Assembly: GCA_016776905.1 (NCBI GenBank)
Contig: JADHSM010000011.1
Span: forward strand, 41,442-105,441
Reading direction: 5' to 3'
Source of the DNA: Planctomycetota bacterium
GTDB lineage: Bacteria > Planctomycetota > UBA8108 > UBA1146
Length of the DNA stretch: 64,000 bases
Shown: positions 782 to 63,603 of the stretch, in pieces
Layout: each line of letters opens with the position of its first letter
Numbering within the stretch: position 1 is the stretch's first letter
The notes under the pieces: generated by a model
Seen by the model: the letters and a program-made list of their open reading frames with translations, nothing else
What the model was told of the DNA's origin: nothing
Database searches by the model: none
Translations under genes and position numbers: made by a program

Positions 782-1978
782 GTGAAGACCTTGAACCGAA
801 TTGATACGCTCCTCAAGCCTCTCGTTGACGAAGAGAGATTCTCTCTCTTTGAGAGCATCGCTCGTTTTGCCGAAGATGAGATTGCTCCGAACCTACTGGG
901 CTGGGAAAGATCCAAATCTTTGGTTCCAGATGGTGTCATTTCAAAAATGGGAGATATGGGCCTGTTTGGTTTGCCGATACCAGATGAGTATGGGGGCCAA
1001 GACGGTCAAATGATCGATTTGATTTTGGCCGGTCTATCACTTTCATATTGGAGTCCCTCGGTCGCCATCACACCCGGTGCAGCAGTCTCCTTGGGCATCA
1101 ATCCGCTCCTTAGGTTTGGCACTGATCAACAAAAGAAGGATCACTTGCCTGATCTCGCGGCGGGGCGTCGAATGTTTGCGTTTGGTTTATCCGAACCCGG
1201 AAGAGGTTCAGACGCTGCCAATCCGCAGGTGGTTGCAGAAAAAGTTGAAGGTGGATATGTCCTGAGAGGCGAGAAGTGTTGGACCACCAATGCTGCCTGG
1301 GCGAGTCATATCGTTGTTCATGCGTTGACAGATCCCAGCGGTCGTAACGGACATCGAAGTACTTGTTTCATTGTTCCCAGAGATCGAGAAGGTGTTGCCT
1401 ATCAGGAAATGGAAGGCAAAACAGTCTGGCCTCTTTCCTCGACCGGTTCGGTCGCCTTTGACTCCGTGAAGGTGAGCGAGGATGAAATTCTCGGTGATAT
1501 TCATGGGGGTTTTCGTGTGATGGTGACAACCCTGAACGGCGGTCGCTTATTTGTGGCAGCCGTTGCCTTGGGGTCTTTGGCATTTGCTCTCGATAAAACG
1601 AGGGGATACGTGCAAGAGCGTGAGCAATTTGGCGGCGCCATTGGACGTTTCCAAAGAGTTCAAGATGTTGTTCTTGAGATGGATTTGGCGTTGGAGCGAA
1701 ATCTGAGTTGGCTTATACAGCTGGTCCATGCATATGACAAAGGAACTATGGATCGTGAGCAGGCCGCCAAAGTAAAAATCGACTGCAGTCGAGTAGCGTC
1801 GACGCTTGTTCAGGATGCGATGGAGATTTGCGGGGGGGTTGCTTGTCTCGATGAGTTTGGGCTGGCAAGGCATGCGGCGGACTTGTTTGTGACTCGGGTG
1901 GGAGAGGGATCCAATCGAGCGCTCATGAGTCAGATTTCCCGTTCATTACTGCCGGATATTGCTGACGAGTTACAATAA
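782..1978 (+). CDS. acyl-CoA dehydrogenase family protein
   Basis: 398-aa ORF with a GTG start. The N-terminal helical domain (FAEDEIAPN), middle beta domain (GLSEPGRGSDAA, KCWTTNA) and C-terminal helical domain (REQFG..I..FQ) are typical of ACAD enzymes. Confidence 0.9.
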   Translation: MKTLNRIDTLLKPLVDEERFSLFESIARFAEDEIAPNLLGWERSKSLVPDGVISKMGDMGLFGLPIPDEYGGQDGQMIDLILAGLSLSYWSPSVAITPGAAVSLGINPLLRFGTDQQKKDHLPDLAAGRRMFAFGLSEPGRGSDAANPQVVAEKVEGGYVLRGEKCWTTNAAWASHIVVHALTDPSGRNGHRSTCFIVPRDREGVAYQEMEGKTVWPLSSTGSVAFDSVKVSEDEILGDIHGGFRVMVTTLNGGRLFVAAVALGSLAFALDKTRGYVQEREQFGGAIGRFQRVQDVVLEMDLALERNLSWLIQLVHAYDKGTMDREQAAKVKIDCSRVASTLVQDAMEICGGVACLDEFGLARHAADLFVTRVGEGSNRALMSQISRSLLPDIADELQ

Positions 1979-11314: not shown

Positions 11315-11581
11315 TGTGGCGCTCCTCACGAGACGTTAGGGGACTCAGGAGATGTTGCCCTTCTCGTCAGGAAGATCAACTGTTACGGCGGGATCCACGA
11401 ATCGGATCGCTGGGGACAGGAGAGGAGTCCTGCCACGCTGGCAGATGGGTGTGTCGGGTCTGGCAGGCTCCTGCCAACATGACATGGCTCAGGGGTGTGA
11501 GTGCTGTAGTACTGCCGAAAATATGATTGTAAGGCATTATAAAATAATAACTTAGGGTTATTGCTGTAGAAGGTCGCTCAG

Positions 11582-38113: not shown

Positions 38114-41100
38114 ATGACGAATCATTCCATATTGTTACTGATACCGATCTTCATGACAGCAATTCAGCAGGCACCCTTTGTTGAATCGGTGGGGGTCGAC
38201 TTTGAAAGAGAAGTTCGTCCTCTGCTGGCCCGAAATTGCTTCCCGTGTCATGGAAATGACTCCGGAACGAGAAAAGCAGACTTGCGTCTGGACGACCGCG
38301 ATAGTGCGACTCAAATAAAGGGTTGGAAGATCCCGGCGATCTCTCCTGGAGATGCAGAATCCAGCCTTTTGATGCACAGAATCGAGGACGACTCCGACCC
38401 TATGCCTCCGGAGGGGCATCCCCGTCTGAAATCTGAAGAGCGAGATCTCCTTCGCCGCTGGATCAATCAGGGTGCGGAATACTCGTCTCATTGGTCATGG
38501 CAACCTCTGAGAGATGAGCAGCCCCTGAACTCTGAGAACTCAGTATGGATTCGAGATCCCGTAGATGCTTATGTTCTCGAAGGCCTGAAGTCTCAAAAAA
38601 TATCACCGGCTCCAGAGATCGACCCATTGTTTTGGTTGAGAAGAGTGACCTTTGATCTCACGGGTCTTCCTCCCTCCCCAGCAGTAGTGGAAGAGTTCTC
38701 ACTCAACCACGGAGTGGAAGCACGGAAAAAGTATGTGGAGCTACTGTTGGAAGATAGGGGATATGCCGAGCATTTCACGAGGCATTGGCTCGATCTCGTT
38801 CGATATGCAGAAACCCATGGGCACGAGTTCGACTACGCCGTGGGCCCTGCCCATGAATATCGAGATTGGGTGATTCAATCCATCGAGCGAGATGATCCCA
38901 TCGACCAATTTGTGAAAGATCAAATTGCGGGAGACCTCGTTGCGGCTGGTCAGCATTCGGAACTTGAATCTGAGAGTGCGAGAATTCGCCACGCTGCTGC
39001 AGGTACCGGCTGGTGGTGGTTATCCCAAGCGACGCATGGCCCAGTGGACGTTCTCGGGGATACCTTGAATAGAGTGGATAATCAAATAGATGTGATCAGT
39101 CGAGCATTTCTGGGAGCCACCGTTTCATGTGCCCGTTGCCACGATCATAAATTTGATCGCATTTCGCAGGCGGATTGGACAGCGCTTTCAGGAATTGTCC
39201 GATCCACCCGAAGAGTGGTCCACCCATGGGATCGAAACGGGGAAATCCACCAACGGATCTCGGAACTGAAGCCTTTGATGGGAACTTTATCGGCGGCTTT
39301 AGAGCAGGGAATGACGCTTCAGGAAACCCTTCCTCTCGCCTCTTGGATGTTGGCTGCTAAGGCCCTTCGCGATGTGATGCCTGATCAAGGCGAGAAGATG
39401 AGAAGCGATATTCTACTCCAGAGCTTTGAAGATGGCTGGTCTGATTGGGTGGTGGAGGGAGATGCATTTGGGAAGAGTCCGCATCACAGAAGAGATCTCA
39501 TAGAAGAACAGAGTGATTTTCTTCAAGGTGAAAATCTAGCGACCAGTCATGACCGTCGCCAAGGGAATGAAGAGGGTCAAGATGGTTCTGATCTAGGTCC
39601 TTCAAGTGATCTGCGAAAAGGCAGATTGATCAGTCCTCAATTCGAATTAAACCGTGACTATTTGACATTTTTCATCAGTGGTGGAAACCATGGTTCTGAT
39701 ACATGTGTTCGACTTATTGTTGATGGTCAGGTGATAAAACAAGCCTCAGGGAATCAACAGACACGCATGGATCCGGTTCGCTGGGATGTGGCAGATAAAA
39801 ATGGCAAATCAGCACGCATTGAAGTCATCGATGATCACGAAGGAGGATGGGGTCACATCACCTGTGATCACTTTGTGCTGACGGATGTTCCTCCGAAAGG
39901 TATGCCTACCCGCCAACAATTGACGCGTCGTGCCAAAGCTGAAGGCATCGATAAGGAGATCTTGAAAGAATGGGTGAGGCTTTGGCCACAAGTCATTGAA
40001 GGACATCCTGTGGGGCGAGCTCTCTCCAAGGACGATGTTCTCATCTCAAATTGCGAGTCTTCGGAAGGCTGGACTTTAGATGGGCCGGCATTTGATGATC
40101 TGGAGCCTGGCGACTGGACTCTGATCGGGATGCCTCGTTTTCAGGGGGGCCATTCTCTTCACTCTGCTGCGATATCGAGAGCCCTCAGAGGGACGGCATT
40201 ATCGCGGAATTTTTTAGCAGAGCGTCGATTCCTCCACGTTGGAGTTCAGGGGGAAGATTGTCAGGTTCGGGTGTCGATCGAGGGTTATTGGATGAATCAG
40301 CACAATGCTTTGCTCTTTGAGAATTTTATTCAACCGGTTCAGAGTCTAGACCGTTGGCAGCACATGATCTTTGACCTGGAGAGATATCAGGGAAGAAACA
40401 TTCATGTCGAAATCCATGACCCGGGGGATGGCTGGGTCAGTGTGGATCGAGTGTGGCTTTCGGATGATCGTAGTGCTGGAGGACCTGGGCCGGATTGGTC
40501 TGTTCTCAATAATCCAGGATTGACGACGAGTGAATTGTTATCAGACCCTTCGAGGCTGGAACGATTGCTGACTCTAGGTTTGCTGGATCCTTCTCGCTGG
40601 GGAGAGGCTTGGAATGCTGCGGTCTACAAGGCCGTCATCGCCTATAGAGATGTCGCTTCGAAAATTCCTGATCCTACGATGGTATTGGCCTGCAGTGATG
40701 CACCGGTAGGTTTTGATGTTCCGATTCAAATTAGAGGAGAATCGGGAAAAGTTGGAGAGCTCGTCTCTCGCGGAGCGATCAAAGCACTCGGACAAAACGA
40801 TCGCTTTGCAGATGAGTTACAGGGATCTGGAAGATGGGAATTGGCTCAATGGGTGACTTCTCCGGAGAACCCCCTCTTTTGGCGAGTACAGGCGAACCGT
40901 ATTTGGAAATGGGTGATGGGGAAAGGCCTCGTCTCCACTCCCGACGATATGGGCATGATGGGAACTGCACCCCAAAATCAGAGATTACTAGACCATCTGG
41001 CTTTACGTCTTTCTCGAAACGCCTCTCGGAAAGAGTTGATCAGAGATCTCGTTCTGAGCAGTACATACGCGATGGACTCACTGCATCCTGACCCCGATGT

Positions 41101-41674
41101 CGATACGCGAGATTCGAGGAATGACTACTGGCACAGGGCTGAGCAAAAGCGACTGACGGCGGAATCAATTCGAGATGGCATTTTGGTTACTTCTGGGGGT
41201 TGGGTTCCATCCTCTGGTGGTCCGCCAGTTCCAACCCATTTGAATGATTTTTTGACGGGTCGGGGGCGACCGGGACAGAGTGGTCCGCTCGATGGAGATG
41301 GAAGCCGCAGTTTGTATCTCGAAGTACGCCGCAATTTTCTGAATCCATTTTTTACAGTCTTCGATTTCCCGATTCCGGCAACAACGGTAGGGAAAAGAAC
41401 GGAGTCCAATGTTCCTGCACAAGCGCTCACTCTGATGAACTCCCCATTCGTTCATGAACAGGCCGAGCGTTGGGGGGGTGCTTTAAAAGAACTTTCTGAG
41501 ACGGTGGGGATCGACGGTGCGATCGATCATGCTTGGAAGCAGGCTTTGGGTCGTTGGCCATCGAAGCCAGAGAGACAGTTCGCTTTAGAGTTGATAGGTG
41601 CGGGAGGCCAAGAAGACTGGGCAGACTTGGCCCATACGATCTATCAGACGAAGGAGTTTCGTTTTGTCCGTTGA
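38114..41674 (+). CDS. PSCyt1-DUF1549-(jelly-roll insert)-DUF1553 family protein
   Basis: 1186-aa ORF. The N-terminus carries CFPCHG....ADLRLD (planctomycete cytochrome c motif). It also has FTRHWLDLVRYAETHG (DUF1549) and CARCHDHKFD (DUF1553). Confidence 0.85.
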   Translation: MTNHSILLLIPIFMTAIQQAPFVESVGVDFEREVRPLLARNCFPCHGNDSGTRKADLRLDDRDSATQIKGWKIPAISPGDAESSLLMHRIEDDSDPMPPEGHPRLKSEERDLLRRWINQGAEYSSHWSWQPLRDEQPLNSENSVWIRDPVDAYVLEGLKSQKISPAPEIDPLFWLRRVTFDLTGLPPSPAVVEEFSLNHGVEARKKYVELLLEDRGYAEHFTRHWLDLVRYAETHGHEFDYAVGPAHEYRDWVIQSIERDDPIDQFVKDQIAGDLVAAGQHSELESESARIRHAAAGTGWWWLSQATHGPVDVLGDTLNRVDNQIDVISRAFLGATVSCARCHDHKFDRISQADWTALSGIVRSTRRVVHPWDRNGEIHQRISELKPLMGTLSAALEQGMTLQETLPLASWMLAAKALRDVMPDQGEKMRSDILLQSFEDGWSDWVVEGDAFGKSPHHRRDLIEEQSDFLQGENLATSHDRRQGNEEGQDGSDLGPSSDLRKGRLISPQFELNRDYLTFFISGGNHGSDTCVRLIVDGQVIKQASGNQQTRMDPVRWDVADKNGKSARIEVIDDHEGGWGHITCDHFVLTDVPPKGMPTRQQLTRRAKAEGIDKEILKEWVRLWPQVIEGHPVGRALSKDDVLISNCESSEGWTLDGPAFDDLEPGDWTLIGMPRFQGGHSLHSAAISRALRGTALSRNFLAERRFLHVGVQGEDCQVRVSIEGYWMNQHNALLFENFIQPVQSLDRWQHMIFDLERYQGRNIHVEIHDPGDGWVSVDRVWLSDDRSAGGPGPDWSVLNNPGLTTSELLSDPSRLERLLTLGLLDPSRWGEAWNAAVYKAVIAYRDVASKIPDPTMVLACSDAPVGFDVPIQIRGESGKVGELVSRGAIKALGQNDRFADELQGSGRWELAQWVTSPENPLFWRVQANRIWKWVMGKGLVSTPDDMGMMGTAPQNQRLLDHLALRLSRNASRKELIRDLVLSSTYAMDSLHPDPDVDTRDSRNDYWHRAEQKRLTAESIRDGILVTSGGWVPSSGGPPVPTHLNDFLTGRGRPGQSGPLDGDGSRSLYLEVRRNFLNPFFTVFDFPIPATTVGKRTESNVPAQALTLMNSPFVHEQAERWGGALKELSETVGIDGAIDHAWKQALGRWPSKPERQFALELIGAGGQEDWADLAHTIYQTKEFRFVR

Positions 41675-43109
41675 AAATGAATGTTCCGGATCTAGACCTG
41701 TGATCAACAGGCGTGAAATGCTTTCTCACTGTGCTCAGGGTTTTGGTGCGGTGGCGTTGTCGACATTGCTGGGTGATCAACTCTTGGCGGGGAATGATCC
41801 CATGTCCAAGGGAGCGCTGGATGTCGGTGGAGTCGCAGCAAGTCATATCCCACCGCGGGCACGATCCGTCATATTCCTTTACATGGATGGTGGCCCGAGT
41901 CAGGTGGATACATTCGATCCCAAACCTGCCCTTGAAAAATATGATGGGCAACCGTTCCCAGATAAAATGGAACGTACCCAATTCAATAGTGCCGGAAATA
42001 TATTGCGATCTCCTTGGGAGTTTCAACGCTATGGGGAATGTGGACATTCGATCAGTGCCCTGTTCCCAAACGTGGCGAAAAATGCTGACGATCTATTAGT
42101 GATTCGATCGATGACGAGCAAGTTCAGTGAGCATACGAATGCAAACTACTTTTTGCATACCGGATTAGGTCTTTCGGGTAGGCCCAGCATGGGGGCATGG
42201 GTGAGCTACGGGTTGGGGAGTCTGAATCAGGATCTCCCGGGCTTCGTGGTCGTCAATGGCGGATTGGTTCCTCCTGGTGGGGTCGACTGTTTTTCGAGTG
42301 CTTTTCTGCCAGCGAGTCATCAGGGTTCCATCGTTCTTCCCCGGGAAGAAGCGTTGGCCAACATCCGTATTCGCGAGGGGGAAGAGCGACAGCGACGCAA
42401 ATTAGATTTGCTCGCCCGACTGGATCACCTCGGTCTCGAATCTGCGGGACAAACAGAGGTGATGGAGGGAGCCATTGCGCAAGGCGAGTTGGCGTATCGA
42501 ATGCAAACCTCGGTTCCCGAGTTCTCTGATATTTCTGGGGAGTCGGAAGAGGTTCACGAACTTTATGGTCTCGATCATGAATACGAACCGACGCGTATTT
42601 TTGCTCGCGAGTGTCTTCTCGCCCGCCGTCTCGTCGAGCGTGGAGTACGCTTCGTTGAGTTGACCTGTCCCTACGTGGGGACCGATCGTTGGGATCAGCA
42701 CAGCAATCTCAAGGATGGCCATGAGAAGAATGCCCGTGCCGTCGATCAGCCGATCGGAGCCTTGCTGACCGACCTCAAGCGTCGTGGTTTGTTGGAAGAC
42801 ACTCTCGTGGTTTGGGCTGGAGAGTTTGGTCGCACACCCTTTGCTCAGGACAGGGATGGTCGCGATCACAACCCATATGGTTACACCATCTGGATGGCAG
42901 GGGCGGGGGTTCGAGGGGGGCATGTCCATGGAGCGACGGATGATTTTGGTTATCGTGCCGTCGAAAAACCCGTCGAGGTTCATGACCTACACGCGACGAT
43001 GTTGCATCTTCTTGGAACCGATCACACCCAACTGACCCAACTCTTCGGCGGCCGTGAGCAGAGACTGACCGATGTTCATGGACACGTTCAACACGAATGG
43101 CTCGCTTGA
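41664..43109 (+). CDS. DUF1501 family protein (sulfatase-like fold) with a Tat-type signal
   Basis: Contains NRREMLSHCAQGFGAVALSTLLG, FLYMDGGPSQVDTFDPKP and GRDHN. I place the start at TTG 41664, which follows the SD sequence GAAGGAG. The track start at 41598 would overlap the upstream gene by 77 nt. Confidence 0.85.
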   Translation: MSVENECSGSRPVINRREMLSHCAQGFGAVALSTLLGDQLLAGNDPMSKGALDVGGVAASHIPPRARSVIFLYMDGGPSQVDTFDPKPALEKYDGQPFPDKMERTQFNSAGNILRSPWEFQRYGECGHSISALFPNVAKNADDLLVIRSMTSKFSEHTNANYFLHTGLGLSGRPSMGAWVSYGLGSLNQDLPGFVVVNGGLVPPGGVDCFSSAFLPASHQGSIVLPREEALANIRIREGEERQRRKLDLLARLDHLGLESAGQTEVMEGAIAQGELAYRMQTSVPEFSDISGESEEVHELYGLDHEYEPTRIFARECLLARRLVERGVRFVELTCPYVGTDRWDQHSNLKDGHEKNARAVDQPIGALLTDLKRRGLLEDTLVVWAGEFGRTPFAQDRDGRDHNPYGYTIWMAGAGVRGGHVHGATDDFGYRAVEKPVEVHDLHATMLHLLGTDHTQLTQLFGGREQRLTDVHGHVQHEWLA

Positions 43110-46876: not shown

Positions 46877-48133
46877 TTATGGAGTGGGTGGTTTGATCCA
46901 GTCGGCGCCATAAACGTCGACGAATGCCGGTGCCAACTTTGACGAGGGCGAATCCCCCGTCATCTCCAGAAACCATCCGACTCTGGCGGGTTTGACTTCT
47001 GTGATACCGCGGCGACCATTCAGTCCACTTCCACCCCACACTTTTCCGGACACAGCGGCTTCGAAACTCTCGAAGCGTAAGGATGTAGAGTTCCAAGTGG
47101 CAATTCCTACCAGCTCGGCGCTCACTCCCCGGGTTCGACTCGGGAAGTGTTTCCAATCCGTTTCTCCCAGCTTATAGACGCCATCACTTTCAGATCGAAA
47201 CTCTCCTGATAGCAATAGTGTGACTTTGTCCGCTTCACGATCCCCAACAGTGATGGTCACTTCTGCCTTTTCGATATCTTCTGGAGAGAAGGGACCTTCT
47301 TGGCCGGAGACATTATCGACGATATGGAAACGAGCCAACCGCATGGCGAGTCCGGCGGGAAGTGAGTGAACCTGTCCCGATTTGAGAGAGGTGGGAATCC
47401 ACTCTTTCAACTCGGAGTGATGGAACCAAATGTGATCTCGATTCCAGCGCCCGCGTGTCTCTGATCTGAGACCTTTCTCCGGCAAATCTCTGGAGGTACT
47501 GCGGAGCACCAGGCCGTCCGAGGGATAGAAGAGCTCCCAACGATGCGCCGGTTCATAAATGAAAGGATCGATGGGAAGACGTTCCTCAGCGGGCAAAGCC
47601 TCCCATGCTGCGAGTCCCTTCTCTAACAAGATGAGAGCTTTATCTGCTTGGAGAGTATTTTGTCGGACGAGCAATTTCCCCGATGGACTAAAGATATACA
47701 GGCCTTGCCAAGAACCGCCAATCGGGGTGGTTCTCCCTGCCACCTGCTGTCGAAAAAACTGGCATTCCTTGTCGGGGTGTCGTTGAAGTCTCCAGACTTC
47801 ATCTGTTGCGGGAGTGAATGAGAGTACTTTCTCGATGACTCGAGGATCGTTCCAGACGGACCGCCGGCCCGCCACTCCATTGCCTCAGGTGCAGCCGAGA
47901 GGATGCCCATTCATGAGCCAGAGCAGCATCGGCTTCCCTTCTTCACCGGCCTTTTTTAGGCCTTCATGAAGACTGGTATGCCATGGGATCGTCAACCAGC
48001 GATCTTCTGGGCCAGGCTCGATCGCCTGTTTCCAGTTTTTAAGTGGCTGCTCCTCTAGAGAACAGACGGGATCATCTGAAGAGATGGGAATCAAACACAC
48101 GTTGAGAAGGAGCAGTATCGATAGGGGTGTCAT
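46877..48133 (-). CDS. secreted thioredoxin-fold protein with an in-frame UGA (candidate selenocysteine at 47885-47887) and a ~330-aa C-terminal domain of unknown function
   Basis: Track ORFs 47885..48265 and 46877..47875 share a frame. Read-through gives GKPMLLWLMNGHPLGCT-U-GNGVAGRRSVWNDPRV. The signal peptide MTPLSILLLLNVCLIPISS starts at ATG 48133, after GGAGGA. A hairpin lies 11 nt 3' of the UGA. Confidence 0.55.
47855..47873 (-). promoter_or_regulatory. SECIS-like hairpin candidate downstream of the in-frame UGA
   Basis: The mRNA can fold as GGCGGGCC-GGC-GGUCCGUC, with 8 pairs including 2 G-U. The hairpin starts 11 nt after the UGA. Confidence 0.4.
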
Positions 48134-48243
48134 GAGTCCTCCGCGTATATTGATGAGCCAGTCATTCCCCATCGTGCCAGTAGATCGGGTCTTTTGCCAC
48201 CCGGATGACGTTAGTATGTGACAAAAATGAGAGGAGTGTAGAT

Positions 48244-48618
48244 ATGCCAAGACATATATCAGCACCTACCGTCGTCGAATCTGTGGGAAACCTTCCCAAG
48301 CGTATCGAGGAATATATTGGACGGGTGAATTCCGGAGATAGCAGCGCTAGCGTGGCGAGAATGGTATCGCCTTCCGGGTGGGAAGAACCAGGGCAAAAGC
48401 CCCTTTTTGATGAGATGACTCTGGTTCTCAAGGGGGCTCTCAAGGTCGAGTCGGAAGAGGGTAGTTTTGACGTTTCTGCGGGGCAAGCCATCATCGTTAA
48501 AGCCGGTGAATGGGTTCGTTACAGTAGCCCGGGTGCTGAGGGGGCGGAATACGTTGCGATTTGTATTCCCGCATTTTCCCCAGAGACGGTGCAGCGTGAT
48601 GATGCACAAGATGGATAG
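48244..48618 (+). CDS. cupin domain protein
   Basis: Shows the small beta-barrel pattern ...ARMVSPSGWEEPGQKPLFDEMTLVLKGALKVESEEGSFDVSAGQAIIVKAGEWVRYS. The ATG at 48244 follows GAGAGGAG. Confidence 0.7.
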   Translation: MPRHISAPTVVESVGNLPKRIEEYIGRVNSGDSSASVARMVSPSGWEEPGQKPLFDEMTLVLKGALKVESEEGSFDVSAGQAIIVKAGEWVRYSSPGAEGAEYVAICIPAFSPETVQRDDAQDG

Positions 48619-48718: not shown

Positions 48719-51295
48719 TCACGGACAGTTGTAGCTGGCGCAATCTAGCGCATCCGTATCCGTGGGATCAGGCCCACAATCGACGGAGCCTGGTGCTGGC
48801 AATACAGGTCCACCGCTGAAGAGGGTGGCGAGCTTGAATATTGCGTCGGCAATATTCACTCCACCATCATCGTTGGCATCGCTGGCATCTGCACACGCAC
48901 TTGCAGGACCGCCACTGAAAAGTCCGGCGAGAAGGAAAACTGCATCAGCGATGTTGAATCCACCATCACCATTGGAATCACCTCGGCGGAATTCCGGAAG
49001 TACAGGTCCTCCTCCGCCTCCAGCCATCGCTGTGGCATAGAGTTCGACAAGCGCATCCCTGTCACCGGTGAAGCCGCCGAATTCCCAGCTTTGGCAAATG
49101 ACTTTTCCACCGGCATTCGTGCTGTAGTAGACACCCGTGGAATATGTACTGAGAGATTCTTCCCAAATGGGAGCGGCATCGGGCCCCAAGGAGTCTGTCG
49201 TGGTGGCGACCAACTGGTCGGTCCAATCATTTCCTGCGCCAGCATCCTGTGTGTAATCCACCGCGGCATATGCACTGAGATCTAGACCAAAGGTACTGTC
49301 GAGTCCATTCATGGTCAGGAAGGTATCGTCACCATCGAAAATCCCGTCAGCGACGCCATCGATGGCTCCGAATGAAGGATCGACGGGGTCGAATCCCCAC
49401 GCATCTCCAGCTTCTACATAAATACCAATACCTAAGAACTGTGCATCTGCGATGGCGAGTGAAGAGCCCACAGACATTGCTGCATTATTGGGGAATGTTC
49501 CTCCGCAATACCAAATCCGCTCAATGGCACTCGTTCCTGGGTCTAGAAGTCCGCAGGGTGCGTTTTCAGGTTGCCCTTCAACGATGAGAGGAAGACGCCC
49601 AGTCGCGGTCAATGCATCAGAGAGTGCGCCTGCACTGTCGACGGCTCCCGCAACGTTTTCGACGCGGAAGATAATATCGGTGGCGTTGATATCTGGCACA
49701 GTTAGAGCGAGTCCTGTGGGAGCACTGCTCAAACCACAGTTGGTGCTAGTGCCGACGACTTCATAGAAAGCTGAACCTGGTACAGGACTTGTGTCGGTGA
49801 AAAAGGTTGTTCCGGAAGGAAGACCAGAAGCGAGTGAAACTCCATCTTTGAAGACTTCATACTCGTCGTAGGTTGGACCAATTCCTGCACCATCCCATGC
49901 GATTTCGACAAAGCCAGAAAGGCAATCATAGAAACCTGTCAATCCAGTGATGGGAGATACATCGATGAGAATTGTACCGGGGCCTCTATCTCCACCGAAT
50001 CCAGAGATACGTAGCAAGTAAGTAGTTCCGACAAAGGCAGTGAGATTGAGTGCACTCTGGAATCCACAACTGTCATCGTTGCATTCAATCAGCGTCATTC
50101 CTGCGCAGTTTCCTGGAGTGGGGCCCGCATCAAAGACTTCGAAGGCAGTGTCATAACTCGATCCGCAAAGCGAAATGTTAAAGACACTGTCGCACGGTGG
50201 AGTAAAGGTATACCACTGATCGACCGAACCCCCGTTTCCGCAACTGAATGCAGGAGCGGAAGGGTCGAGCAGTGCAAATGTTGTGTCAAAGTCTGTAGGA
50301 ATTCCGAGCGTTATCGGCAGGGCGGTATCGCAAGTATCGTTATCAATAGCACTGCAATGAATCAGGCTACAAGAAGAAGACCAACTGGTTGTCGCAGTGC
50401 ACAATCCCACGATTTCGTAGTTATGGACACCATCATCCACACCGATGTCCTGGTAAGAAGTCGCATTCCCCGGAAGTGTTGCAATATCTACACCATCACG
50501 AATCACCGTAATCCCTTGTGAGTAGGGTCCCGGCTGAAAACTCGTCCAGCTGAGATCCACGGTATCGGTGACACAGTCGGAAACGCAGTTCAGGGTGTCG
50601 AATGGGCAACAGTTTCCACAACCACCCAAGACATCCACGTACACATCGTCGTAGTAAAAGGTTCCACCTGATCCGTTGTACAGATCTAGGCATCTCATCT
50701 GATTCGAGCCGCCGACCTGCCATACGTTTTCGCGCATGATCTCAGTTCCAGCGTAATAAGCGCTGTACAAATTATTGTCGATGTCTACGACGACTCGTAT
50801 TTCAATCCATTGGTCATAGCGAAGTTGAGTCGGTGTCGACAAACCCGTGATAGCGGAGGATCCACCAGCATCGGTAACGAGGCCTGTGGCATCACTCATC
50901 TCGATTTGAACAGACCAATTCTTGGGCCCATTGTGTTCATACGTATTCAGCAGAATGAAGTAATAGGTTCCTGCTTGCCCAGACGGGACGTAGACATTTG
51001 AAGTGAATTCAAATTGGCCCTGATTGAGTCCGTTGAAGAGTCGGACGATGTCATCATTGTCCTGGAGCTCGAGGGAATTTACTCCTCCTGTAGTGGAATT
51101 GAATGTGTCGACAACGACACTATCTACTCCGGCTGCTTGATCCCAGGTGTCCCAGCTGCCTTGTCCCGCAATAGTTGAACCGACAGCGTAACTTTCAAAA
51201 CTGTCAGAATCTAACTGGGCAAAAGCGGGCGAGACCAAACTGCTGAGCACTAGCAAAATGGTGACAACGGCGGCATTTAATCCATGATTATTCAT
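48719..51295 (-). CDS. large secreted modular protein: LamG-like, Fn3-like, PPC-like, Fn3-like, unknown module, double dockerin-like tail
   Basis: The SD sequence AAAGGAGG lies 4 nt before ATG 51295, and the signal peptide is MNNHGLNAAVVTILLVLSSLVSPAFA. The C-terminus carries DSNGDGGFNIAD and DANDDGGVNIAD, followed by DCGPDPTDTDALDCASYNCP. Confidence 0.8.
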   Translation of the reverse strand: MNNHGLNAAVVTILLVLSSLVSPAFAQLDSDSFESYAVGSTIAGQGSWDTWDQAAGVDSVVVDTFNSTTGGVNSLELQDNDDIVRLFNGLNQGQFEFTSNVYVPSGQAGTYYFILLNTYEHNGPKNWSVQIEMSDATGLVTDAGGSSAITGLSTPTQLRYDQWIEIRVVVDIDNNLYSAYYAGTEIMRENVWQVGGSNQMRCLDLYNGSGGTFYYDDVYVDVLGGCGNCCPFDTLNCVSDCVTDTVDLSWTSFQPGPYSQGITVIRDGVDIATLPGNATSYQDIGVDDGVHNYEIVGLCTATTSWSSSCSLIHCSAIDNDTCDTALPITLGIPTDFDTTFALLDPSAPAFSCGNGGSVDQWYTFTPPCDSVFNISLCGSSYDTAFEVFDAGPTPGNCAGMTLIECNDDSCGFQSALNLTAFVGTTYLLRISGFGGDRGPGTILIDVSPITGLTGFYDCLSGFVEIAWDGAGIGPTYDEYEVFKDGVSLASGLPSGTTFFTDTSPVPGSAFYEVVGTSTNCGLSSAPTGLALTVPDINATDIIFRVENVAGAVDSAGALSDALTATGRLPLIVEGQPENAPCGLLDPGTSAIERIWYCGGTFPNNAAMSVGSSLAIADAQFLGIGIYVEAGDAWGFDPVDPSFGAIDGVADGIFDGDDTFLTMNGLDSTFGLDLSAYAAVDYTQDAGAGNDWTDQLVATTTDSLGPDAAPIWEESLSTYSTGVYYSTNAGGKVICQSWEFGGFTGDRDALVELYATAMAGGGGGPVLPEFRRGDSNGDGGFNIADAVFLLAGLFSGGPASACADASDANDDGGVNIADAIFKLATLFSGGPVLPAPGSVDCGPDPTDTDALDCASYNCP

Positions 51296-51589
51296 GGTGC
51301 CTCCTTTCAGATTTTTATTGAACAAAGCCCGATTCGCCCGTTTTTGTGTTTTTGGTGAAAGGGAAAAGCCCTTTCCGAAAACAAAACCGGACGGATATAT
51401 CTAATTGTATGCACCACAGAGATACTCGCAACAGGGCAGAATTGCCGGAATTGGCTTTAATCGTTGAATAGCTTGGTTATTAGAAATATTTTTTGGTAAC
51501 TGAGTTCATTTATCTATAAATTCTCCATTGTTGTACGGAACGAGGACGCTCTTCGTTCCGTCATATAAAAAGAAGACAAGGAAGCATTC

Positions 51590-53918: not shown

Positions 53919-54200
53919 ATGCTTAGATTTCTCTACATGCTTGTTTGTTTGTTTTTCTTGTCCCCAGGGTTGTTTGCCCAAGATCAAGTTAAGCAATGGT
54001 CATATCCGTATGGGGATTCTCAAGTTTCTCTTGTTCAGGATAACCCTGCAATCCTTGCGATATTAGTGGATCCCGCTGAAGAAGATCCAGAACAGTTGAT
54101 CTCCAATTTGGTGAGAGCTCGAAGCAACATTTTGGAAGTGGTAAGGCCAAAGCTCAGGAGTACCCGGGGCTATTTTATATTCCTTTGGAAAAGAAGTTAG
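53919..54200 (+). CDS. signal-peptide/pro-region fragment that most likely belongs to the downstream S8 protease (frame-shifted)
   Basis: AGGAGG-N5-ATG, then MLRFLYMLVCLFFLSPGLFAQDQ.... The ORF ends 16 nt inside the next ORF, which lacks any signal peptide. Confidence 0.6.
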   Translation: MLRFLYMLVCLFFLSPGLFAQDQVKQWSYPYGDSQVSLVQDNPAILAILVDPAEEDPEQLISNLVRARSNILEVVRPKLRSTRGYFIFLWKRS

Positions 54201-57200
54201 ATAAGAACGGGTTACTGAAGTTGACCGAAGTTCTTGCTTCAAGTCCGAGCATTGTCACTGCTGCTCCGCTTCTACATTTTGATCGAGCAGATTTAATTAC
54301 GCGACCAGAATTAATAGTCACATTTGATGGCTCTGTAGAAGATTCAGACATTCGTAAAATTTTGAACGCGAATGAATTGAGACCACTGAGAACTTTCTCT
54401 GGATTAGATCCGACATACCTCGTTTCTTTCATAGGGTCTCCCATGAAAGCATTCGAACTATCTTGGGAACTCATCAGATTCGATGAGGTTTCTGCCGCAG
54501 AGCCGAATTTTATTCAGGACCTTCCTGAGATGGCGACGCCGAATGATTCCCTCTATGCGAACCAATGGGATATGAACAACACGGGTCAGACGGGTGGAAC
54601 CCCTGGTGCAGATATGCATATGTCAGAGGCGTGGGATATTTCAACCGGATCCGCCAGTATCGTTGTCGCGATCATCGATGAGGGAGTCGATGTGGATCAC
54701 CCCGACCTTATTGCCAATATGGTTGCAGGTTTCGACGCGGTGACTGCGGATCCCACACCTGAGGGTGTTCCCGGAAATGCCAACTCGGGTGACGGTCACG
54801 GAACTTGTTGTGCAGGTATTGTCGCGGCCGATGGAAACAACGGACTGGGAGTTACCGGAGTCACATGGAATAGCAAGATCATGCCGATTCGTATCGGCTT
54901 TGGAAACTTCTGGACACAGACGGACTGGATCATCGATGGATTGACATGGCCCGTCGATAACGGTGCAGATGTCCTGTCCAACAGTTGGGGGGGTGGGGGT
55001 GCCAGTACCGCCATTCAAAATGCAGTCAGTTATGGAACTACGACGGGCCGAGGAGGATTGGGTTGTCCTAACTTCTTCGCTTCAGGAAATGATAATGGCG
55101 GAGTTTCATATCCAGCCGCTTATCCCGAAGCCATCGCAGTGGGGGCGTCGAGCCCGTGCGATGAACGCAAGAGTCCTTCCTCATGTGATGGAGAAACTTG
55201 GTGGGGCAGTAATTTTGGGTCAACGCTCGATTTTGTTGCACCAGGTCCGCTGACAACAACCGTTGATATCGCTGGGTCAGGTGGCTATAGCTCTGGAGAT
55301 TACACCTCTTCCTTCAATGGTACTTCTTCTGCGACTCCCCATGCGGCGGGAGCGGGAGCATTGCTTCTTGCGGTTGCTCCAGGATTGACGGAGTCAGAAG
55401 TACGGACATTGATGCGTCAAACTGCTGACGATCAGGTTGGACCCCCTTCTGAAGACACAGCGGGCTTCGACATTTACATGGGATATGGGCGGGTGAATTG
55501 CGAATCGCTCCTCTTGGCAGTGGCGAGTAATGTTCCAGGTCCCACAGGACTGAGTTGCAACAACTCTGGGGTCAGCACAGTGCTTTCGTGGAATAACGGA
55601 GCCAGTTACACCCAGGTCACAGTCTCGAGAAATGGAAGTGTGCTGGCCACCTTGTCGGGAGGCGCAACTTCTTACACTGACGGGGCGACGCCTACAGGTA
55701 CCTCTTCATACGCTGTTCGGGGATACCAGGGCGCAGATTTCAGTTCTGCAGCCAGTTGTTCAGTCTTCTCGATCGGAGATGCCACTGATCTCGTTTGGGC
55801 TCCTTCCGCTGCGGGCGGAGCTGTTTCAGGCGGGCAAGGGTTGGCGGATGCATTAACGGCAGCCGGACGCAGCCCACTTCTTGTCGCGAGTCTGAATGAT
55901 GTCAGCAATCTTGATATCTTCGAAGCTGTTTGGGTGAATCTCGGAATTTATCCTTCAAATCATGTGCTCTCTTCAGGAGAGTCCTCCCAGTTGGACAGCT
56001 ACCTTACGAATGGAACAGGTGGAAGCTTCCTTTATCTTGAAGGAGGAGATACCTGGGCGTATGACACCAGCACAACTGTGCATGGTCGCTTTGGAATTTC
56101 AGGACAATCCGATGGAACAGCCGATCTTTCCACGGTGACAGGAGCTGCGGGAGCAGGATGCGATCTCGCTGGAAATTCTTGGAGCTACGGAGGAGAAAAT
56201 AATTGGATCGACAGACTCGGAACGACCGGGTCCGGTGTTGTCTCACTCATCAATCCGAGCCCGTCATACAATGTGGGTATCTTCAACGATGCCGGAAGTT
56301 ATAAAACTTTTGGAGCATCCTTTGAAATCGCAGGATTGAACGATGGAGCCTCATCCAGAGCAGATCTTGTTTCTGCGATTCTGACTTGCTTCGCAGGGGT
56401 AGCACCTCCACCACCTCCGCCGGCTCCGGTAGCAGATTTTTCTGCGACTCCGACTTCGGGTGAGGTCCCTCTCAATGTGTCCTTCGGTAATCTCACGAGC
56501 GGCGACGTGACGGCATACTCCTGGAGTTTCGGGGATGGAAATGGGTCTTCCGGAAACAACCCATCTCATACTTATACTTCCGCAGGGGTATACACCGTCA
56601 CATTGACGGCAACAGGCCCTGGTGGTTCCGATACAGCGACATGTTCTGCATGTATCACTGTGAATGATCCACCCCCTCCGCCTGCTCCAGTCGCTGGTTT
56701 CTCGGTGACGCCCACCTCAGGTGAGACGCCACTCCTTGTGTCGATGACGAATGAAACCACCGGTGACGTGACGGGATACTCCTGGGACTTTGGAGATGGA
56801 AACGGTTCGACCGCTAGCGATCCAAATCATACTTACTCTTCCCCTGGAGTTTACACCATCACTTTGACGGCGACGGGACCGGGTGGTTCGGATACTGCGA
56901 TCTGTCTAGACTGTGTCACAGTATCGGACCCACCTCCTCCACCTGCACCGGTCGCAGATTTCTTGGCAACTCCTAATTCAGGGGACGCACCTCTGGTGGT
57001 AGCGTTCGTCAACTTGTCGTCGGGAGATATTGACTCTTACTTATGGGACTTTGGCGATGGAAATGGATCCTCTGCGAGCGATCCGAACCATACTTACACA
57101 GCTTCTGGGCTTTATAATGTGACGTTGACGGTCACCGGTCCTGGTGGATCTGACACTGCTGTTTGTAACAATTGTATTACCGTCACTGATCCACCCCCTC

Positions 57201-58846: not shown

Positions 58847-59092
58847 TTGATAGGGGAGTCCAAAATCTCGACTTCGAAGCGGAAGAAGTGAGGCGTGTGC
58901 CGTGAATTGTCCCGATGAAGCGATAAAACAGGCACAATTTTGCGAATCGGGGGCGGGGATCGCAAGGCTGAACTTGTCGTCATGAGAGGTTATCGATACC
59001 TTGGCAGTGTCCACTCCCGCGTCTCTGAGAGAGTCAGGCCCAAAATGGTCCTGAAGAATCGTGGCGGGAGATCAGCGAAGGATCGGAGAGCC

Positions 59093-60832
59093 ATGAAATC
59101 GTCTGTCGAGGTCAAGGATCCGGTGACAGAGAAGATTCTCGATCAATGGATGGAAAAGCCGGCTCCATTTTTGTCGGTTCTCCATGCGATTCAGGACCAC
59201 TTTGGGTATTTGCCTGAAAGTGGACTTCGGCTGGTCGGACAGCGGTTTGGTATTCCGGTGAGTGAACTCTACGGAACCGTCACCTTCTATCACTTTTTCT
59301 CATTGGAGCCCAAAGCTCTCCCGGATATTCGCATCTGTGAAAATTCAGCGTGCTGTTTGCATGACCTCGATGCGATATGTGAAGAAATTGTCGATAAGGA
59401 TCTCGGTATCCCACACTCGGGAAAAGTTGAAAAAATATCATGCCCAGGTCGCTGCGATGTCCCTGTCCCTATTCTGATAGGCGAAACATTTCTTCATGGC
59501 GCCCAATCGGGAGCCATTGAGAAGGCGACTCCTGCAACAATGCCTCTACCACCTGAGATAGGTTTGGAAGAGTGTCTCTTCAAAGATATTCGAAATGGAG
59601 TTTCCAGCCTTGAAAAGGCGGTCGAGGCCGGCTCATGGCAATCTCCCAAAAGAGCTGCAGATGACCCCGAAGGATTCATTTCAGAATTGAAATCTAGCGG
59701 GCTGACAGGAAGAGGCGGGGCTGGATTTCCTACGGGTGTAAAGTGGGAAGCCGTCCGCTCCGAAGTCGCTGATCAGAAGTGGATAGTTTGTAACGCTGAT
59801 GAGAGCGAAGTGGGCTGCTTTAAAGACAGAGTCTTGATGGCCCATACACCTCACGCCCTATTAGAGGGAATGACATGCGCAGGTTTAATAACAGGTGCAG
59901 AAGTAGGCATCGTTTATCTCCGTTGGGAATACCCGGAGATTTTAGAGTCATTACAAACGGCCATCGATGAAGCGACAGCCGCTGGATACCTCGGAGTGGA
60001 TGCTTGTGGGACTGGAAAGCCTTTTCAAATAGTGATTCGAAGAGGTGCTGGCGCTTACATTTGTGGTGAAGAGACTTCGCTTCTGAACTCATTGGAAGGA
60101 AAGCATCCTTTTCCAAGAGAGAAGCCACCATTCCCAACGACTCATGGACTGTTTCAGCAGCCTACTGTCGTCAATAACGTAGAAACTTTTTGTGCTGTGC
60201 CTCCGATTATCGATCGGGGAGGCGATTGGTTCAGTCAGTTAGGATTGGGAGATCAACAGGGCACGCGAATATTCAGTGTCTCTGGAGATATTCAACGCCC
60301 AGGAAACTACGAGGTGCCCGTCGGGACACCCCTTCGACAACTTCTAATGGAGTTTGCTGGAGGAACATTCGAGGGGCGTGAAATCCAAGGTGTCACCATG
60401 GCAGGAGTGAGTGGAGGCTTGGTCGGTGCAGAAGACCTAGATGTTCGACTCGATCCTGCCTCACTCAATGACCTTGGAGCGATGCTGGGTGCTGGGGGAA
60501 TAGTTGTTCACGACGATACTCGATGCATGATTCAGGCGGCTCGGGAAAGCATGCACTTCCTTGCCGAAGAGTCATGCGGTAAGTGCTTCCCTTGTCGTAT
60601 CGGAACAACCCGCATGACCGAGATTTTAGATGAGTTAAATTCTGGAAAACCTGTTCGAGAGGGACTTCTACAGGAGATTGAAGATCTCGAAGAGGTTCTG
60701 GCTGAGACGAGTGCGTGTGGCTTGGGCTTAGCAGCCCCTTACATAACACGAATGCTCAAAAAGTATTGGCCCCAAGAAATACAAGACAAAATTGACGGCT
60801 CAGGCCAAGCGCTGAAAGAGGGCTCTGAATGA
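59093..60832 (+). CDS. NuoE-like/NuoF-like fusion protein (diaphorase beta/gamma subunit of NAD-dependent formate dehydrogenase)
   Basis: The N-terminal 2Fe-2S thioredoxin-like part carries HAIQDHFGYLP and YGTVTFYHFF. The NuoF core carries GRGGAGFPTGVKWE and the 4Fe-4S motif ESCGKCFPCRIGT. I prefer ATG 59093, after GGAGAG. Confidence 0.85.
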   Translation: MKSSVEVKDPVTEKILDQWMEKPAPFLSVLHAIQDHFGYLPESGLRLVGQRFGIPVSELYGTVTFYHFFSLEPKALPDIRICENSACCLHDLDAICEEIVDKDLGIPHSGKVEKISCPGRCDVPVPILIGETFLHGAQSGAIEKATPATMPLPPEIGLEECLFKDIRNGVSSLEKAVEAGSWQSPKRAADDPEGFISELKSSGLTGRGGAGFPTGVKWEAVRSEVADQKWIVCNADESEVGCFKDRVLMAHTPHALLEGMTCAGLITGAEVGIVYLRWEYPEILESLQTAIDEATAAGYLGVDACGTGKPFQIVIRRGAGAYICGEETSLLNSLEGKHPFPREKPPFPTTHGLFQQPTVVNNVETFCAVPPIIDRGGDWFSQLGLGDQQGTRIFSVSGDIQRPGNYEVPVGTPLRQLLMEFAGGTFEGREIQGVTMAGVSGGLVGAEDLDVRLDPASLNDLGAMLGAGGIVVHDDTRCMIQAARESMHFLAEESCGKCFPCRIGTTRMTEILDELNSGKPVREGLLQEIEDLEEVLAETSACGLGLAAPYITRMLKKYWPQEIQDKIDGSGQALKEGSE

Positions 60833-63603
60833 GTACCGAAATGAAAATGGTCATCGATGGAGCAGAGGTTTCCTTCAAAGAGGGAGAGACCGTCCTCGAG
60901 GTGGCAAGAAGACAGGGCAGTTTTGTCCCGACTCTTTGTTATGACGAGCGGCTTGACCCATATGGATCTTGCCGCCTTTGTGTCGTCGAAGTCGAGGGGC
61001 GTCGGTTGCCGGCATCTTCTTGTACGCTCAAAGCCGAAGCTGGAATGGATATTCGTACTGGGAGTGATCATATTCGCAAGATGCAATCCACTCTTGTAGA
61101 GATGGTTCTTTCGGAGAATCCCGGCGATGAATGTCCACGCTGTAGAGACATTGGTACTTGTGAAGTCCATGAGTTGGCAGAAGAGTTTGAGGTTTCAAGA
61201 GATAGATTTCTTGGAGCAATAAGTAATGCCTCAAAAGACGATTCCAATCCGTTCCTTCTGAGAGATTATGATCGTTGCATTTCTTGTTACCGTTGTGTTC
61301 GGATCTGCGATGAAGTCGAGGCTGATCATGCGATCACGATGACGGGTCGAGGTTGGAACAAAGGAATCGCTACTGCATTCGATGGTGGCTTGATGGATAG
61401 CGACTGTACCCTCTGTGGTCAGTGCATTTATACATGTCCTACTGGTGCACTCGCAGATAAGAAGATGGTGAATCAAGGTTCGAAGCCTGGCGAAATCGAA
61501 ATTACCCGAAGCGTTTGTCCATATTGTGGAACCGGTTGCTCCATCAACCTCCACAGTCTCGATGGGAAAATGATCGGAGTCACTCCTGTACTCGATGGCC
61601 CAGTGAACGAAGGTGCCTTATGTGTGAAGGGGCAGTTTGGTTTTGATTTCGTGAATTCGGAAGATCGCCTGACACGTCCTTTGATACGGAAAAATGGAGA
61701 ACTGACACCCGTTTCATGGAATGAAGCTTTCGATTACACCGCCCAGAAATTATTGAGCGTCAGGGACGATCATGGGCCTAAAGCATTTTATGCCATCGCG
61801 AGTGGAAGAGCTCCTGGCGAAGGTTCATATATGCTGCAAAAGTTTACTCGCGCAGTGATGAACTCAAATCAAGTCGACAATTGTTCGCGTGGCTGACACA
61901 GTCCTACGGTCGCCGGTCTGGCGGCCTCTATTGGACGTGGAGCTATGTCAAATTCGATTCCAGAGATCGAAGATGCAGACATGATGCTTTGCGTCGGAAC
62001 GAACATGACAGAGTGTCATCCCATTATTGCGGTTAGGGTGAAAAAGGCCGTCCGTAAGGGTGCAAAACTGTATGTTGTCGATCCGCGGAAGATTCCACTG
62101 ACAGAATACGCCACAGGGCACCTTCCTTTGAAGTTAGGTTCCGATGTTGCTTTGTTCAATGCCATGGCAAAAGTCATCATCGATGAAGGCTTAGCAGACA
62201 TGGAATATATTGAAGAGAGAACCGAAGGTTTCGAGGAACTGAAGAAACATCTGGAACCCTTCACCGCTGAATACGGCGAAGAGATTTCAGGTGTCCCTGC
62301 ACAACTGATACGGGAATGTGCGATCGCATATGCCTCTGCAGGGAGCGCAGGGATCTACTACACCCTTGGGATCACTGAACATATTTGCGGAGTGAGTAAC
62401 GTTCAGAGTCTTTGCAATTTGGCTCTCATCACCGGAAATCTTGGAAAACGTTCAGCTGGAGTAAACCCATTGAGGGGCCAGAACAATATTCAGGGTGCCG
62501 GGGATACGGGCGCACTGCCGAACAACTATCCAGGATTCCAATCTGTGGACGATCCTGTGTGTCAGGAGAAATTCGAAAAGGCCTGGGGTGTGCCAATGGA
62601 TCCCCATAAAGGGATCACGAAAATAGCAGCATTGGATCACGCTGTCGATGGTCGCATCAAAGCGATGTGGATCTGCGGTGAAAATACATTGGTCACAGAT
62701 CCAGATGTTAAACACACAACAAAAGCTTTAGAGTCTCTCGATTTCTTGGTTGTTCAAGATATGTTCTTGACCGATACAGCGAAACTTGCAGACGTGGTAT
62801 TCCCTGCCGCTGCATTTACAGAGGTAGATGGTTTCTTTACGAATTCCGATCGTCGAGTTCAGAGAATTCGAAAGGCTGCGAACCCGCCGGGTGACGCAAT
62901 GCCAGATTGGTGGATTATTGCTCATGTCGCCAAGCGCATGACTAATGATGTCCATTTCGATTACGAAAACAGTGAGCAAGTCTTCGATGAACTCGCTTCG
63001 CTTTCGCCGATTTATGCGGGATTGAGTTACGACAGAATTGAGCGAGGTGATCTGGCCTGGCCAGTTCCAGAGATGGATCACCCGGGAACACCGATTCTTC
63101 ACGAGGGAGAATTCCTCAACGGAAAAGGCAAACTACAGTTACTGAATTATGTGCCGCCTTCCGAGAATCCCGATGAAGAGTATCCGTTCTACCTGACAAC
63201 GGGCCGGCGACTGCCGACTTACCACAGCAATACCATGACAGGTCGCTCGGGTGGTTTCCGCATACTTGTTCCCAATGAGTGGCTAGAAATCCATCCCGCA
63301 GATGCAGAGAAGCTCGGGTTGGAAGATGGAGATTGGTCCAAGATCACATCGAGGCGTGGAGAAGTGATCACGCGAGTGGCGATCACGAAAACATCTCCAA
63401 GGGGCACTGTATTCATGAGCTTTGCATTCCCTGAAGAGGTGATGACAAACATTGTTACCAATCCAGAAGTGGATCCCCAAACCGAGACTCCGGAATTCAA
63501 AGTTGCGGCGGTTTCGATTGTTCGGGTGGAAGCTCCGACGGGACTTGGGGCAAGTGAAGCATTGAGGGCGAATCCTGACGTGGAAGATCCTCATCTTGGT
63601 TGA
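60829..63603 (+). CDS. fdhA: formate dehydrogenase alpha subunit (molybdopterin), selenocysteine-containing (UGA at 61894-61896)
   Basis: Track ORFs 60829..61896 and 61945..63603 share a frame. Across the junction the sequence reads VDNCSRG-U-HSPTVAGLAASIGRGAMSNS, the FDH active-site motif. The N-terminal 2Fe-2S and 4Fe-4S cluster cysteines are present. The ATG overlaps the upstream stop (ATGA). Confidence 0.9.
61906..61927 (+). promoter_or_regulatory. bacterial SECIS element of the FDH gene
   Basis: A 7-bp stem (GGUCGCC pairing with GGCGGCC, including one U-G pair) carries the apical loop GGUCU. The loop begins 18 nt after the UGA, as in E. coli fdhF. Confidence 0.75.

Follow-up and report, generated by a model that had tools for sequence, protein, structure and literature searches.

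Prokaryotic selenoproteins were compiled in a 2026 review as 119 families with their domain identifiers and motifs (PMC13188914). In these proteins a Cys-containing redox-type loop after a β-strand is the usual setting of selenocysteine (Sec), and a CxU motif is found in the UshA-like, rhodanese form 3, ferredoxin-thioredoxin reductase and Trx-like Sec.1 families (PMC13188914). Here we analyzed a 64,000-nucleotide stretch of DNA from a Planctomycetota bacterium (GenBank assembly GCA_016776905.1, contig JADHSM010000011.1, positions 41,442 to 105,441; hereafter the window), in which two minus-strand open reading frames (ORFs) are separated by an in-frame TGA. This in-gene "stop" almost certainly encodes Sec, and the two annotated pieces almost certainly make up one exported redox protein of 418 residues. 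None of the 119 families has the motif of this protein, and none of the Pfam or NCBIfam models listed for them matches it (PMC13188914). A preliminary description of the locus, made from the sequence alone, had recognized neither a known selenoprotein family nor the C-x-U spacing; the first point stands, whereas the spacing itself has precedent in the four families named above. The families GOS_A to GOS_C of the Global Ocean Sampling (GOS) survey are different from this one and have many Cys homologues. Within the literature searched, nothing relevant was found on a Planctomycete selenoprotein of this kind; PMC13188914 mentions unvalidated deep-learning candidates.

The two ORFs, 47885..48265 and 46877..47875, share one frame and form a single gene, 48133..46877. 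The first ORF terminates at the TGA at 47885-47887; three sense codons (GGC AAT GGA) lie between this TGA and the GTG at 47873-47875, which is the opening codon of the second ORF. Translated through the TGA from the ATG at 48131-48133, the gene contains 418 codons and ends with TAA at 46877-46879. The UGA is codon 83 and is located within the invariant motif MNGHPLGCT-U-[G/N]NG; the protein around it reads ...GKPMLLWLMNGHPLGCT-U-GNGVAGRRSVWNDPRVIEKVLSF... in a shorter excerpt and ...EEGKPMLLWLMNGHPLGCT-U-GNGVAGRRSVWNDPRVIEKVLSF... in an alternative one. The active-site loop G-H-P-L-G-C-T-U-G-N-G (codons 76-86, 47876..47908, minus strand) consists of alignment columns that are invariant or nearly so. 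The complete gene (46877..48133, minus strand) is defined by its frame, by 200 related loci with the same read-through and by uninterrupted homologues, and the assignment of codon 83 to Sec by the TGA present in all loci read and the Cys present in rare divergent homologues. The locus is 98% identical to contig CALJGL010000012.1 of a metagenome-assembled genome (MAG).

A genome scan with one genome per species identified 206 relatives, and the best 80 loci were read; 79 of the 80 were usable, as the remaining contig starts too near the gene. In all 79 genome loci the in-frame stop is TGA and never TAA or TAG, the motif LLLW.MNGHPLGCT lies upstream of it, and the upstream frame is open for ~80 codons or more wherever the contig extends so far. 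The codons beside the UGA vary synonymously in these loci (Cys as TGT or TGC, Thr as ACA, ACC or ACG). With the critical codon left free, a motif scan of metagenomes gave at least 121 matches, and TGA was present in 121/121 among the matches listed; the same conserved motif with TGY at the critical codon gave 0 matches in the metagenome scan. Together, the genome and metagenome matches provide 200 loci with the same TGA, with protein identities as low as ~35-40%. The ratio of nonsynonymous to synonymous substitution rates (dN/dS) is 0.25 over the 36 codons that precede the UGA, compared to 1.8 in a shifted frame. The three codons that follow the UGA are kept as [G/N]-N-G across relatives, and AT-rich relatives continue as AAT AAT GGT GCA GCA GGC. 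This pattern is far beyond chance. The proposal of the preliminary description that the UGA is read as Sec is supported by the analysis as a whole. The unusable locus (L005, CAYRAM010000031.1, at the contig start) is the only genome locus that lacks the upstream motif; its homology begins 78 nt from the contig end and the preceding sequence is unrelated, which likely reflects a chimeric or truncated contig end.

One sequence with an in-frame stop looks just like an ordinary Cys gene that was inactivated by a nonsense mutation, and Cys-containing homologues of this protein do exist. However, such a pseudogene would not explain the same TGA in 200 independent loci or the purifying selection on both sides of it. 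The divergence of the related loci excludes assembly copies of one sequence, and the Cys forms are rare and divergent and are not the parental state of close relatives. Inactivation is, in our estimate, the least probable of the explanations weighed here, with hardly any weight left to it.

The locus could also be read as two genes, perhaps translationally coupled, that encode one small exported protein of ~82-126 aa ending at the TGA and one 332-aa protein starting from the GTG. All public gene callers annotate it in this way, and the GTG is indeed present three codons past the TGA in this copy. A protein search with the fused query (U replaced by C) identified 149 relatives; among those listed, 120/120 start just past the UGA position, with query coverage of ≤79%. 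A profile of the N-terminal 71 residues matched 825 clusters, the best 120 of which are all fragments of 72-121 aa that end exactly at ...MNGHPLGCT. An exhaustive HMMER search with the C-terminal profile gave 1,612 representatives (50% clustering), 1,196 of them at E ≤ 1e-10, and ~140 of the best 150 have their first residue at the Sec column or past it. Both fragments are named "hypothetical protein" in the NCBI, JGI and ENA records. However, the GTG is not conserved: no start codon 3' of the UGA is conserved among the relatives, many of them have none for 13-28 codons past the TGA, and the starts chosen by the gene callers spread over positions 1-28 of the C-terminal profile. In addition, conservation of the three inter-ORF codons and the exclusive use of TGA as the stop are not expected of two genes, and the second product would have neither an export signal nor the first strand of its own domain.

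Eight uninterrupted full-length homologues were found among the best 150 of the 1,612 representatives; they share 32-35% identity with the window protein across both halves. The Sec column is Cys in three of them, within C-N-C in P0350 (codon TGT), S-T-C in P0373 (TGC) and Q-A-C in P0366 (TGT). It is Ser in P0306 and P0370, Ala in P0376, Arg in P0375 and Asp in P0339, which suggests that some members have lost catalysis. Cys forms are thus rare (3 of the best 150 representatives). The Cys at the Sec column, together with the conserved UGA, is the classical Sec/Cys signature. Because these uninterrupted homologues join both halves and carry Cys in that column, they rule out the two-gene and the pseudogene readings in practice; we regard two separate genes as very improbable. 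The preliminary description had proposed one gene whose ORFs are joined in frame through the UGA, and had named homologues that truly end at this position, or the lack of any Cys in the aligned column, as findings that would speak against it. The layout was confirmed; the homologues run on through both halves, and three of them supply the Cys.

Downstream of the UGA, the mRNA can form a hairpin that resembles a selenocysteine insertion sequence (SECIS). It is located at 47855..47873 (minus strand), starts 11 nt after the UGA and folds as GGCGGGCC-GGC-GGUCCGUC, with an 8-bp stem and a G-rich loop. Across an alignment with 78 distinct sequences, 89% of the cells of the 8-bp helix are paired, whereas sliding the 3' partners by 1-3 columns as a control leaves 28-56% paired. 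Changes on both sides were observed in four of the eight pairs; the compensatory examples include the replacement of C-G by U-A (L038 and L073) and of GGUCC by GGCUC (L055, L057 and L063). In L066 the stem is remodelled and the GGC loop is kept. Within the 5' arm, the Gly codon keeps a C in its third position even when the genome is AT-rich and GGT is used two codons before it. Divergent subfamilies with another peptide (e.g. V-I-A-R-Q-S-V-W) have a different hairpin at the same place, CCAGAC-AGUCU-GUCUGG. For 167 genes, the 36 nt beginning 8 nt past the UGA have a mean minimum free energy of -11.4 kcal/mol, compared to -7.7 kcal/mol for windows of their own genes (Wilcoxon p = 2e-24), and in most of them the centre of the apical loop lies 20-24 nt after the UGA. 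The Cys-form genes (n = 3, a small sample) lack a hairpin at this place and are not unusually stable there. The position given for the hairpin in the preliminary description holds, and the structure is conserved with compensatory changes. An Rfam scan of the whole window found nothing. Five loci (L076, L094, L153, L154 and L160) have a one-codon deletion just 3' of the 5' arm (GRRVW instead of GRRSVW), so the local hairpin register must differ in them.

The window also contains one gene for a Sec-containing formate dehydrogenase alpha subunit, fdhA (60829..63603, plus strand), as noted in the preliminary description. ORFs 60829..61896 and 61945..63603 are one fdhA, with the TGA (61894-61896) within NCSRG-U-HSPTV; this TGA splits the Pfam Molybdopterin domain (PF00384), positions 1-71 of which lie before it and 96-353 after it. 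The SECIS hairpin of fdhA, GGUCGCC-GGUCU-GGCGGCC (61908-61926), follows 11 nt after the UGA, and the spacer of the hairpin at codon 83 is identical in length. The presence of a Sec-type fdhA is indirect proof that this organism decodes UGA as Sec. TGA is also an ordinary stop, ending 15 of the 32 long ORFs of the window, which indicates that the organism uses the standard genetic code. The fdhA gene belongs to one formate dehydrogenase module (58940-63603, plus strand), in which a NuoE/NuoF-like fusion (58940..60832) precedes it, and gene callers would cut fdhA into pieces of 355 and 552 aa.

The comparative data prove that translation continues through the TGA, and do not by themselves identify the inserted residue. 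The UGA could accordingly be read through without Sec, by near-cognate insertion of Trp or Cys or by local reassignment, with the hairpin merely promoting readthrough. Against this, the uninterrupted homologues have Cys aligned with the UGA and never Trp or Gly; the geometry of the hairpin (11-nt spacer, 7-8 bp stem, G-rich loop) is that of the organism's own fdhA SECIS; TGA terminates other ORFs of the window in the normal way; and the site of the codon, a redox-type loop that contains Cys and is preceded by a β-strand, is the usual Sec setting (PMC13188914). We consider readthrough of this type improbable, though a little less so than two genes. What the related loci do establish is that the reading frame is one, that the UGA and the hairpin are both conserved, and that Sec is paired with Cys among the homologues.

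The N-terminus of the protein carries one hydrophobic export signal, MTPLSILLLLNVCLIPISS... (48074..48133, minus strand; boundary approximate), which was recognized from the sequence and modelled as a helix over residues 3-12. Most homologous N-termini have lipobox-like signals (FGC, SGC, YGC or FAC followed by S, T or A). The product is therefore probably exported, as the preliminary description had proposed, and may be lipid-anchored in many relatives. The signal is followed by a putative thioredoxin-like domain (~codons 45-180, 47594..48001, minus strand), placed by the order of its secondary structure elements, with Sec after strand β1, and by a C-terminal β-rich domain (~codons 190-418, 46880..47566, minus strand), placed by the AlphaFold2 model; the boundaries of both are approximate. 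Conserved motifs of the C-terminal domain are RLARFHLVDNVRGQ, NGRR and APAFVD.Y..W. The statements on fold draw on separate models of the two halves. For residues 87-418, the AlphaFold2 model has a mean predicted local distance difference test (pLDDT) value of 91.4 and a predicted template modelling (pTM) score of 0.85; it contains helices, two short strands and one long helix, followed by a domain with five long strands. The model of the N-terminal half (pLDDT 72) places one helix over residues 55-65 and one strand over residues 71-74, directly before the Sec loop. In full-length numbering, the order of elements across the separate half-models is helix 55-65, strand 71-74, the Sec loop, helices, strand 145-148, strand 154-158 and helix 163-178; strand β2 of the thioredoxin topology is not formed in the two half-models. 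Apart from β2, this order is as expected for a thioredoxin fold; the assignment as a whole is weakly supported.

Searches with Pfam and NCBIfam models on the fused protein (U replaced by C) gave no match at E ≤ 1. When 28 full-length members were scanned at E ≤ 10, the sole recurrent Pfam family was Thioredoxin_7 (PF13899), matched by 3/28 with a best E of 0.022; all PF13899 matches in the family are below the gathering threshold. Among PDB sequences, the family profile matched AGR3 (3ph9) at E = 0.44 across the helix-KP-strand segment. The layout of Thioredoxin_7 and DsbD-gamma domains suggested in the preliminary description is weakly supported: the order of elements is similar, and the model matches stay sub-threshold at E ≥ 0.022. 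An hhalign comparison with AGR2 had a probability of 25% and placed Sec on Cys81 of AGR2. If this low-confidence alignment is right, Sec would take the place of the first Cys of CxxC/S, the nucleophile, with the conserved Cys81 of our protein as an extra residue two positions upstream. The preliminary description had placed the stop at the second redox cysteine, which this alignment contradicts. No CxxC, CxxS or UxxC motif is present at the site: the motif is C-T-U-G-N-G, with no Cys, Ser or Thr three residues after Sec. A Foldseek search of the PDB with the model of the C-terminal half found nothing at E ≤ 0.001 and no thioredoxin match. The best match was LmcA (E = 0.02, TM 0.14); this and other β-barrel ligand binders (nitrobindin, Rv2717c) were rejected, since with E ≥ 0.02 and TM ~0.15 they are too weak to use.

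Several observations weigh against the interpretation as an exported, thioredoxin-like selenoprotein. The thioredoxin fold was called from matches below threshold and from separate models of the two halves, and the scaffold is able to do without a redox residue, as seen in the homologues whose Sec column is Ser, Ala, Arg or Asp. On the window sequence alone, the energy of the hairpin is no better than that of shuffled sequences (z = -0.5; the stretch is G+C-rich); the single sequence is thus no evidence for structure, whereas the comparative data are. Among GC-rich relatives, the hairpin is present but not more stable than windows of the same gene. RNAalifold retains only five core pairs with a small covariation term, and the conserved peptide AGRRSVW forces part of the nucleotide conservation. 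No selA, selB, selC or selD is located within the 64-kb window, which is also without tRNA. The gene neighbourhood of the 79 loci offers no functional clues, as no partner is conserved beyond close relatives (maximum 15 loci). Taken together with the evidence above, the best explanation as a whole is one selenoprotein gene in which UGA 83 is read as Sec via the hairpin and whose product is exported and predicted to be a thioredoxin-like oxidoreductase; we estimate its probability at roughly 0.9.

In the mechanism that we propose for this selenoprotein, a SelB-type hairpin (a bacterial SECIS), located 11 nt downstream within the coding sequence, most likely directs Sec insertion, as in fdhA. 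The protein would then be exported to the periplasm or the cell surface, as its sequence features suggest. Its N-terminal part may adopt a thioredoxin-like fold, with Sec in the loop after strand β1 at the usual nucleophile position. Cys81 would serve as the resolving partner, and the C81/U83 pair could cycle through a C-x-U selenenylsulfide. The protein would thus act as an extracytoplasmic selenol-based oxidoreductase, whose substrate, more speculatively, is presumably held by the conserved C-terminal β-rich domain. In one Sec-form locus (L040, JBLINP010000263.1), Pro replaces the Cys two residues before Sec (GHPLGPT-U-GNG), indicating that the Cys partner is not strictly required.

All subfamilies, marine and soil, share the two-domain architecture of ~410-440 aa, and the full-length profile matches all of them over positions ~5-400. 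That Sec forms predominate suggests a reaction that Cys would support poorly. We lean slightly towards regarding the window protein as the founding example of one large undescribed family of exported two-domain selenoproteins, which would comprise ~1,600 clusters (50% identity) from marine and soil Planctomycetota and apparently Marinimicrobia. In this family, Sec would be nearly obligatory (Cys in less than ~3% of the representatives seen), the C-terminal domain would be a new fold, and the chemistry would be one in which Cys cannot easily replace Sec. Near-obligate Sec and few Cys forms would explain why the family was missed by gene callers and by searches for Sec/Cys pairs.

Several members deserve mention in their own right. 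An AT-rich subclade with the motif NNG[AT]AGRRSVW occurs in several independent MAGs labelled Marinimicrobia/Neomarinimicrobiota (SAR406), including loci L024, L044, L049, L055 and L067, as well as L032, L036, L039, L045, L046 and others; locus L016 carries the label Bacillota. These labels could reflect real presence outside Planctomycetota, horizontal transfer or mis-binning. Some genomes have two paralogues (L004/L006 in NHDG01, L057/L062 in CAZOUJ01 and L027/L075 in JACZTW01), and at L165 two selenoprotein copies lie on opposite strands of one contig. Fusions to other modules were observed for P0045, P0087, P0286, P0295, P0322, P0350, P0339 and locus L028. P0045 has C-terminal peptidase M28-type domains; the Cys form P0350 has one SecDF_P1_head-like region; P0339, with Asp at the Sec column, has an N-terminal Ser/Thr kinase and a repeat region. 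Several other fused members are 716-1169 aa in size and have uncharacterised extensions.

In public databases, well over a thousand clusters of this protein are cut in two. Recognising the Sec codon repairs these split annotations and adds one family to the prokaryotic selenoproteome of 119 families (PMC13188914); one that is dominated by Sec shows what pipelines based on Sec/Cys pairs miss. What stands out is the size of the family, its near-obligate use of Sec and a C-terminal fold with no match in the PDB. As an exported selenoenzyme that is abundant in Planctomycetota, and perhaps also in SAR406 (Marinimicrobia), the protein would bear on the question why these lineages retain a Sec machinery that is costly, as well as on the demand for selenium in the sea. 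The C-x-U site and the β-rich domain provide a defined target for biochemical work.

Elsewhere in the window, other in-frame TGAs near Cys codons (512-514, 737-739, 11252-11254, 11578-11580 and 47784-47786) were dismissed as chance. Two of them, TGA 512-514 ('GCULC') and TGA 737-739, lie in the segment 284-1978 (plus strand) and precede one acyl-CoA-dehydrogenase-like ORF (782..1978); they were judged to be chance and not Sec because the upstream frame appears non-coding. One PSCyt1/PSCyt2/PSD1 protein (1186 aa) followed by one DUF1501 protein (503 aa) at 38114-43109 (plus strand) is a typical Planctomycete pair and serves as a taxonomic marker, by which the gene content identifies the window as Planctomycete DNA. 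Large secreted proteins flank the region: one of 868 aa at 48719-51325 (minus strand), which combines a galactose-binding-like domain with DANDDGG.NIADA repeats of dockerin- or EF-hand-like appearance at the C-terminus, and one subtilase of 1532 aa with six PKD domains at 54185-58783 (plus strand).

Compared to described systems, the protein is similar to Thioredoxin_7 proteins (AGR2/AGR3/ERp18, DsbD-gamma-like) in the order W..I.W, helix (..EGL..A....KP), hydrophobic strand and redox residue, which continues with a helix carrying [VF]W.DP.V and then F.P..DE. It differs from them in that there is no match at the curated threshold, the loop from the strand to the redox residue is extended by 3-4 residues (NGHP), C-x-U-G-x-G stands in place of CxxC/S, and an extra β-rich domain of ~230 residues without PDB match is present. 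The selenoproteins of the VPGUxxT family (NF041382/NF041383; OS_HP5 in PMC13188914) are likewise bacterial and thioredoxin-like in fold. This family was the only NCBIfam match, with 2-3 of the 28 members at E = 0.02-0.05, far under the cut-off; its motif is VPG-U-xx-T, whereas that of our protein is GCT-U-GNG, and the architecture is also different. The Trx7/PDZ selenoprotein (NF041199, from the GOS survey) is also marine and has a Thioredoxin_7-type domain fused to another domain, according to the table of PMC13188914. However, it has a CxxU motif and PDZ as the partner domain, and the NF041199 model matched 0/28 members even at E ≤ 10.

The FdhA of the same window likewise has an in-frame UGA that is followed, after 11 nt, by a G+C-rich hairpin of 7-8 bp with a G-rich loop. 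The proteins are unrelated, FdhA being a cytoplasmic molybdoenzyme, and the loop is GGUCU in fdhA, whereas it is GGC or CGGCG here. Eukaryotic Sep15/SELENOF, like the prokaryotic CxU families, has a CxU motif. In all of these proteins Cys and Sec are one residue apart, as they are here, which is compatible with a selenenylsulfide. Compared with the Pfam and NCBIfam models of the prokaryotic CxU families, our protein gave no match, and no sequence relationship to these families was detected. On these similarities and differences, we rate the protein as a new selenoprotein family within one well-known kind, the thioredoxin-like bacterial selenoproteins.

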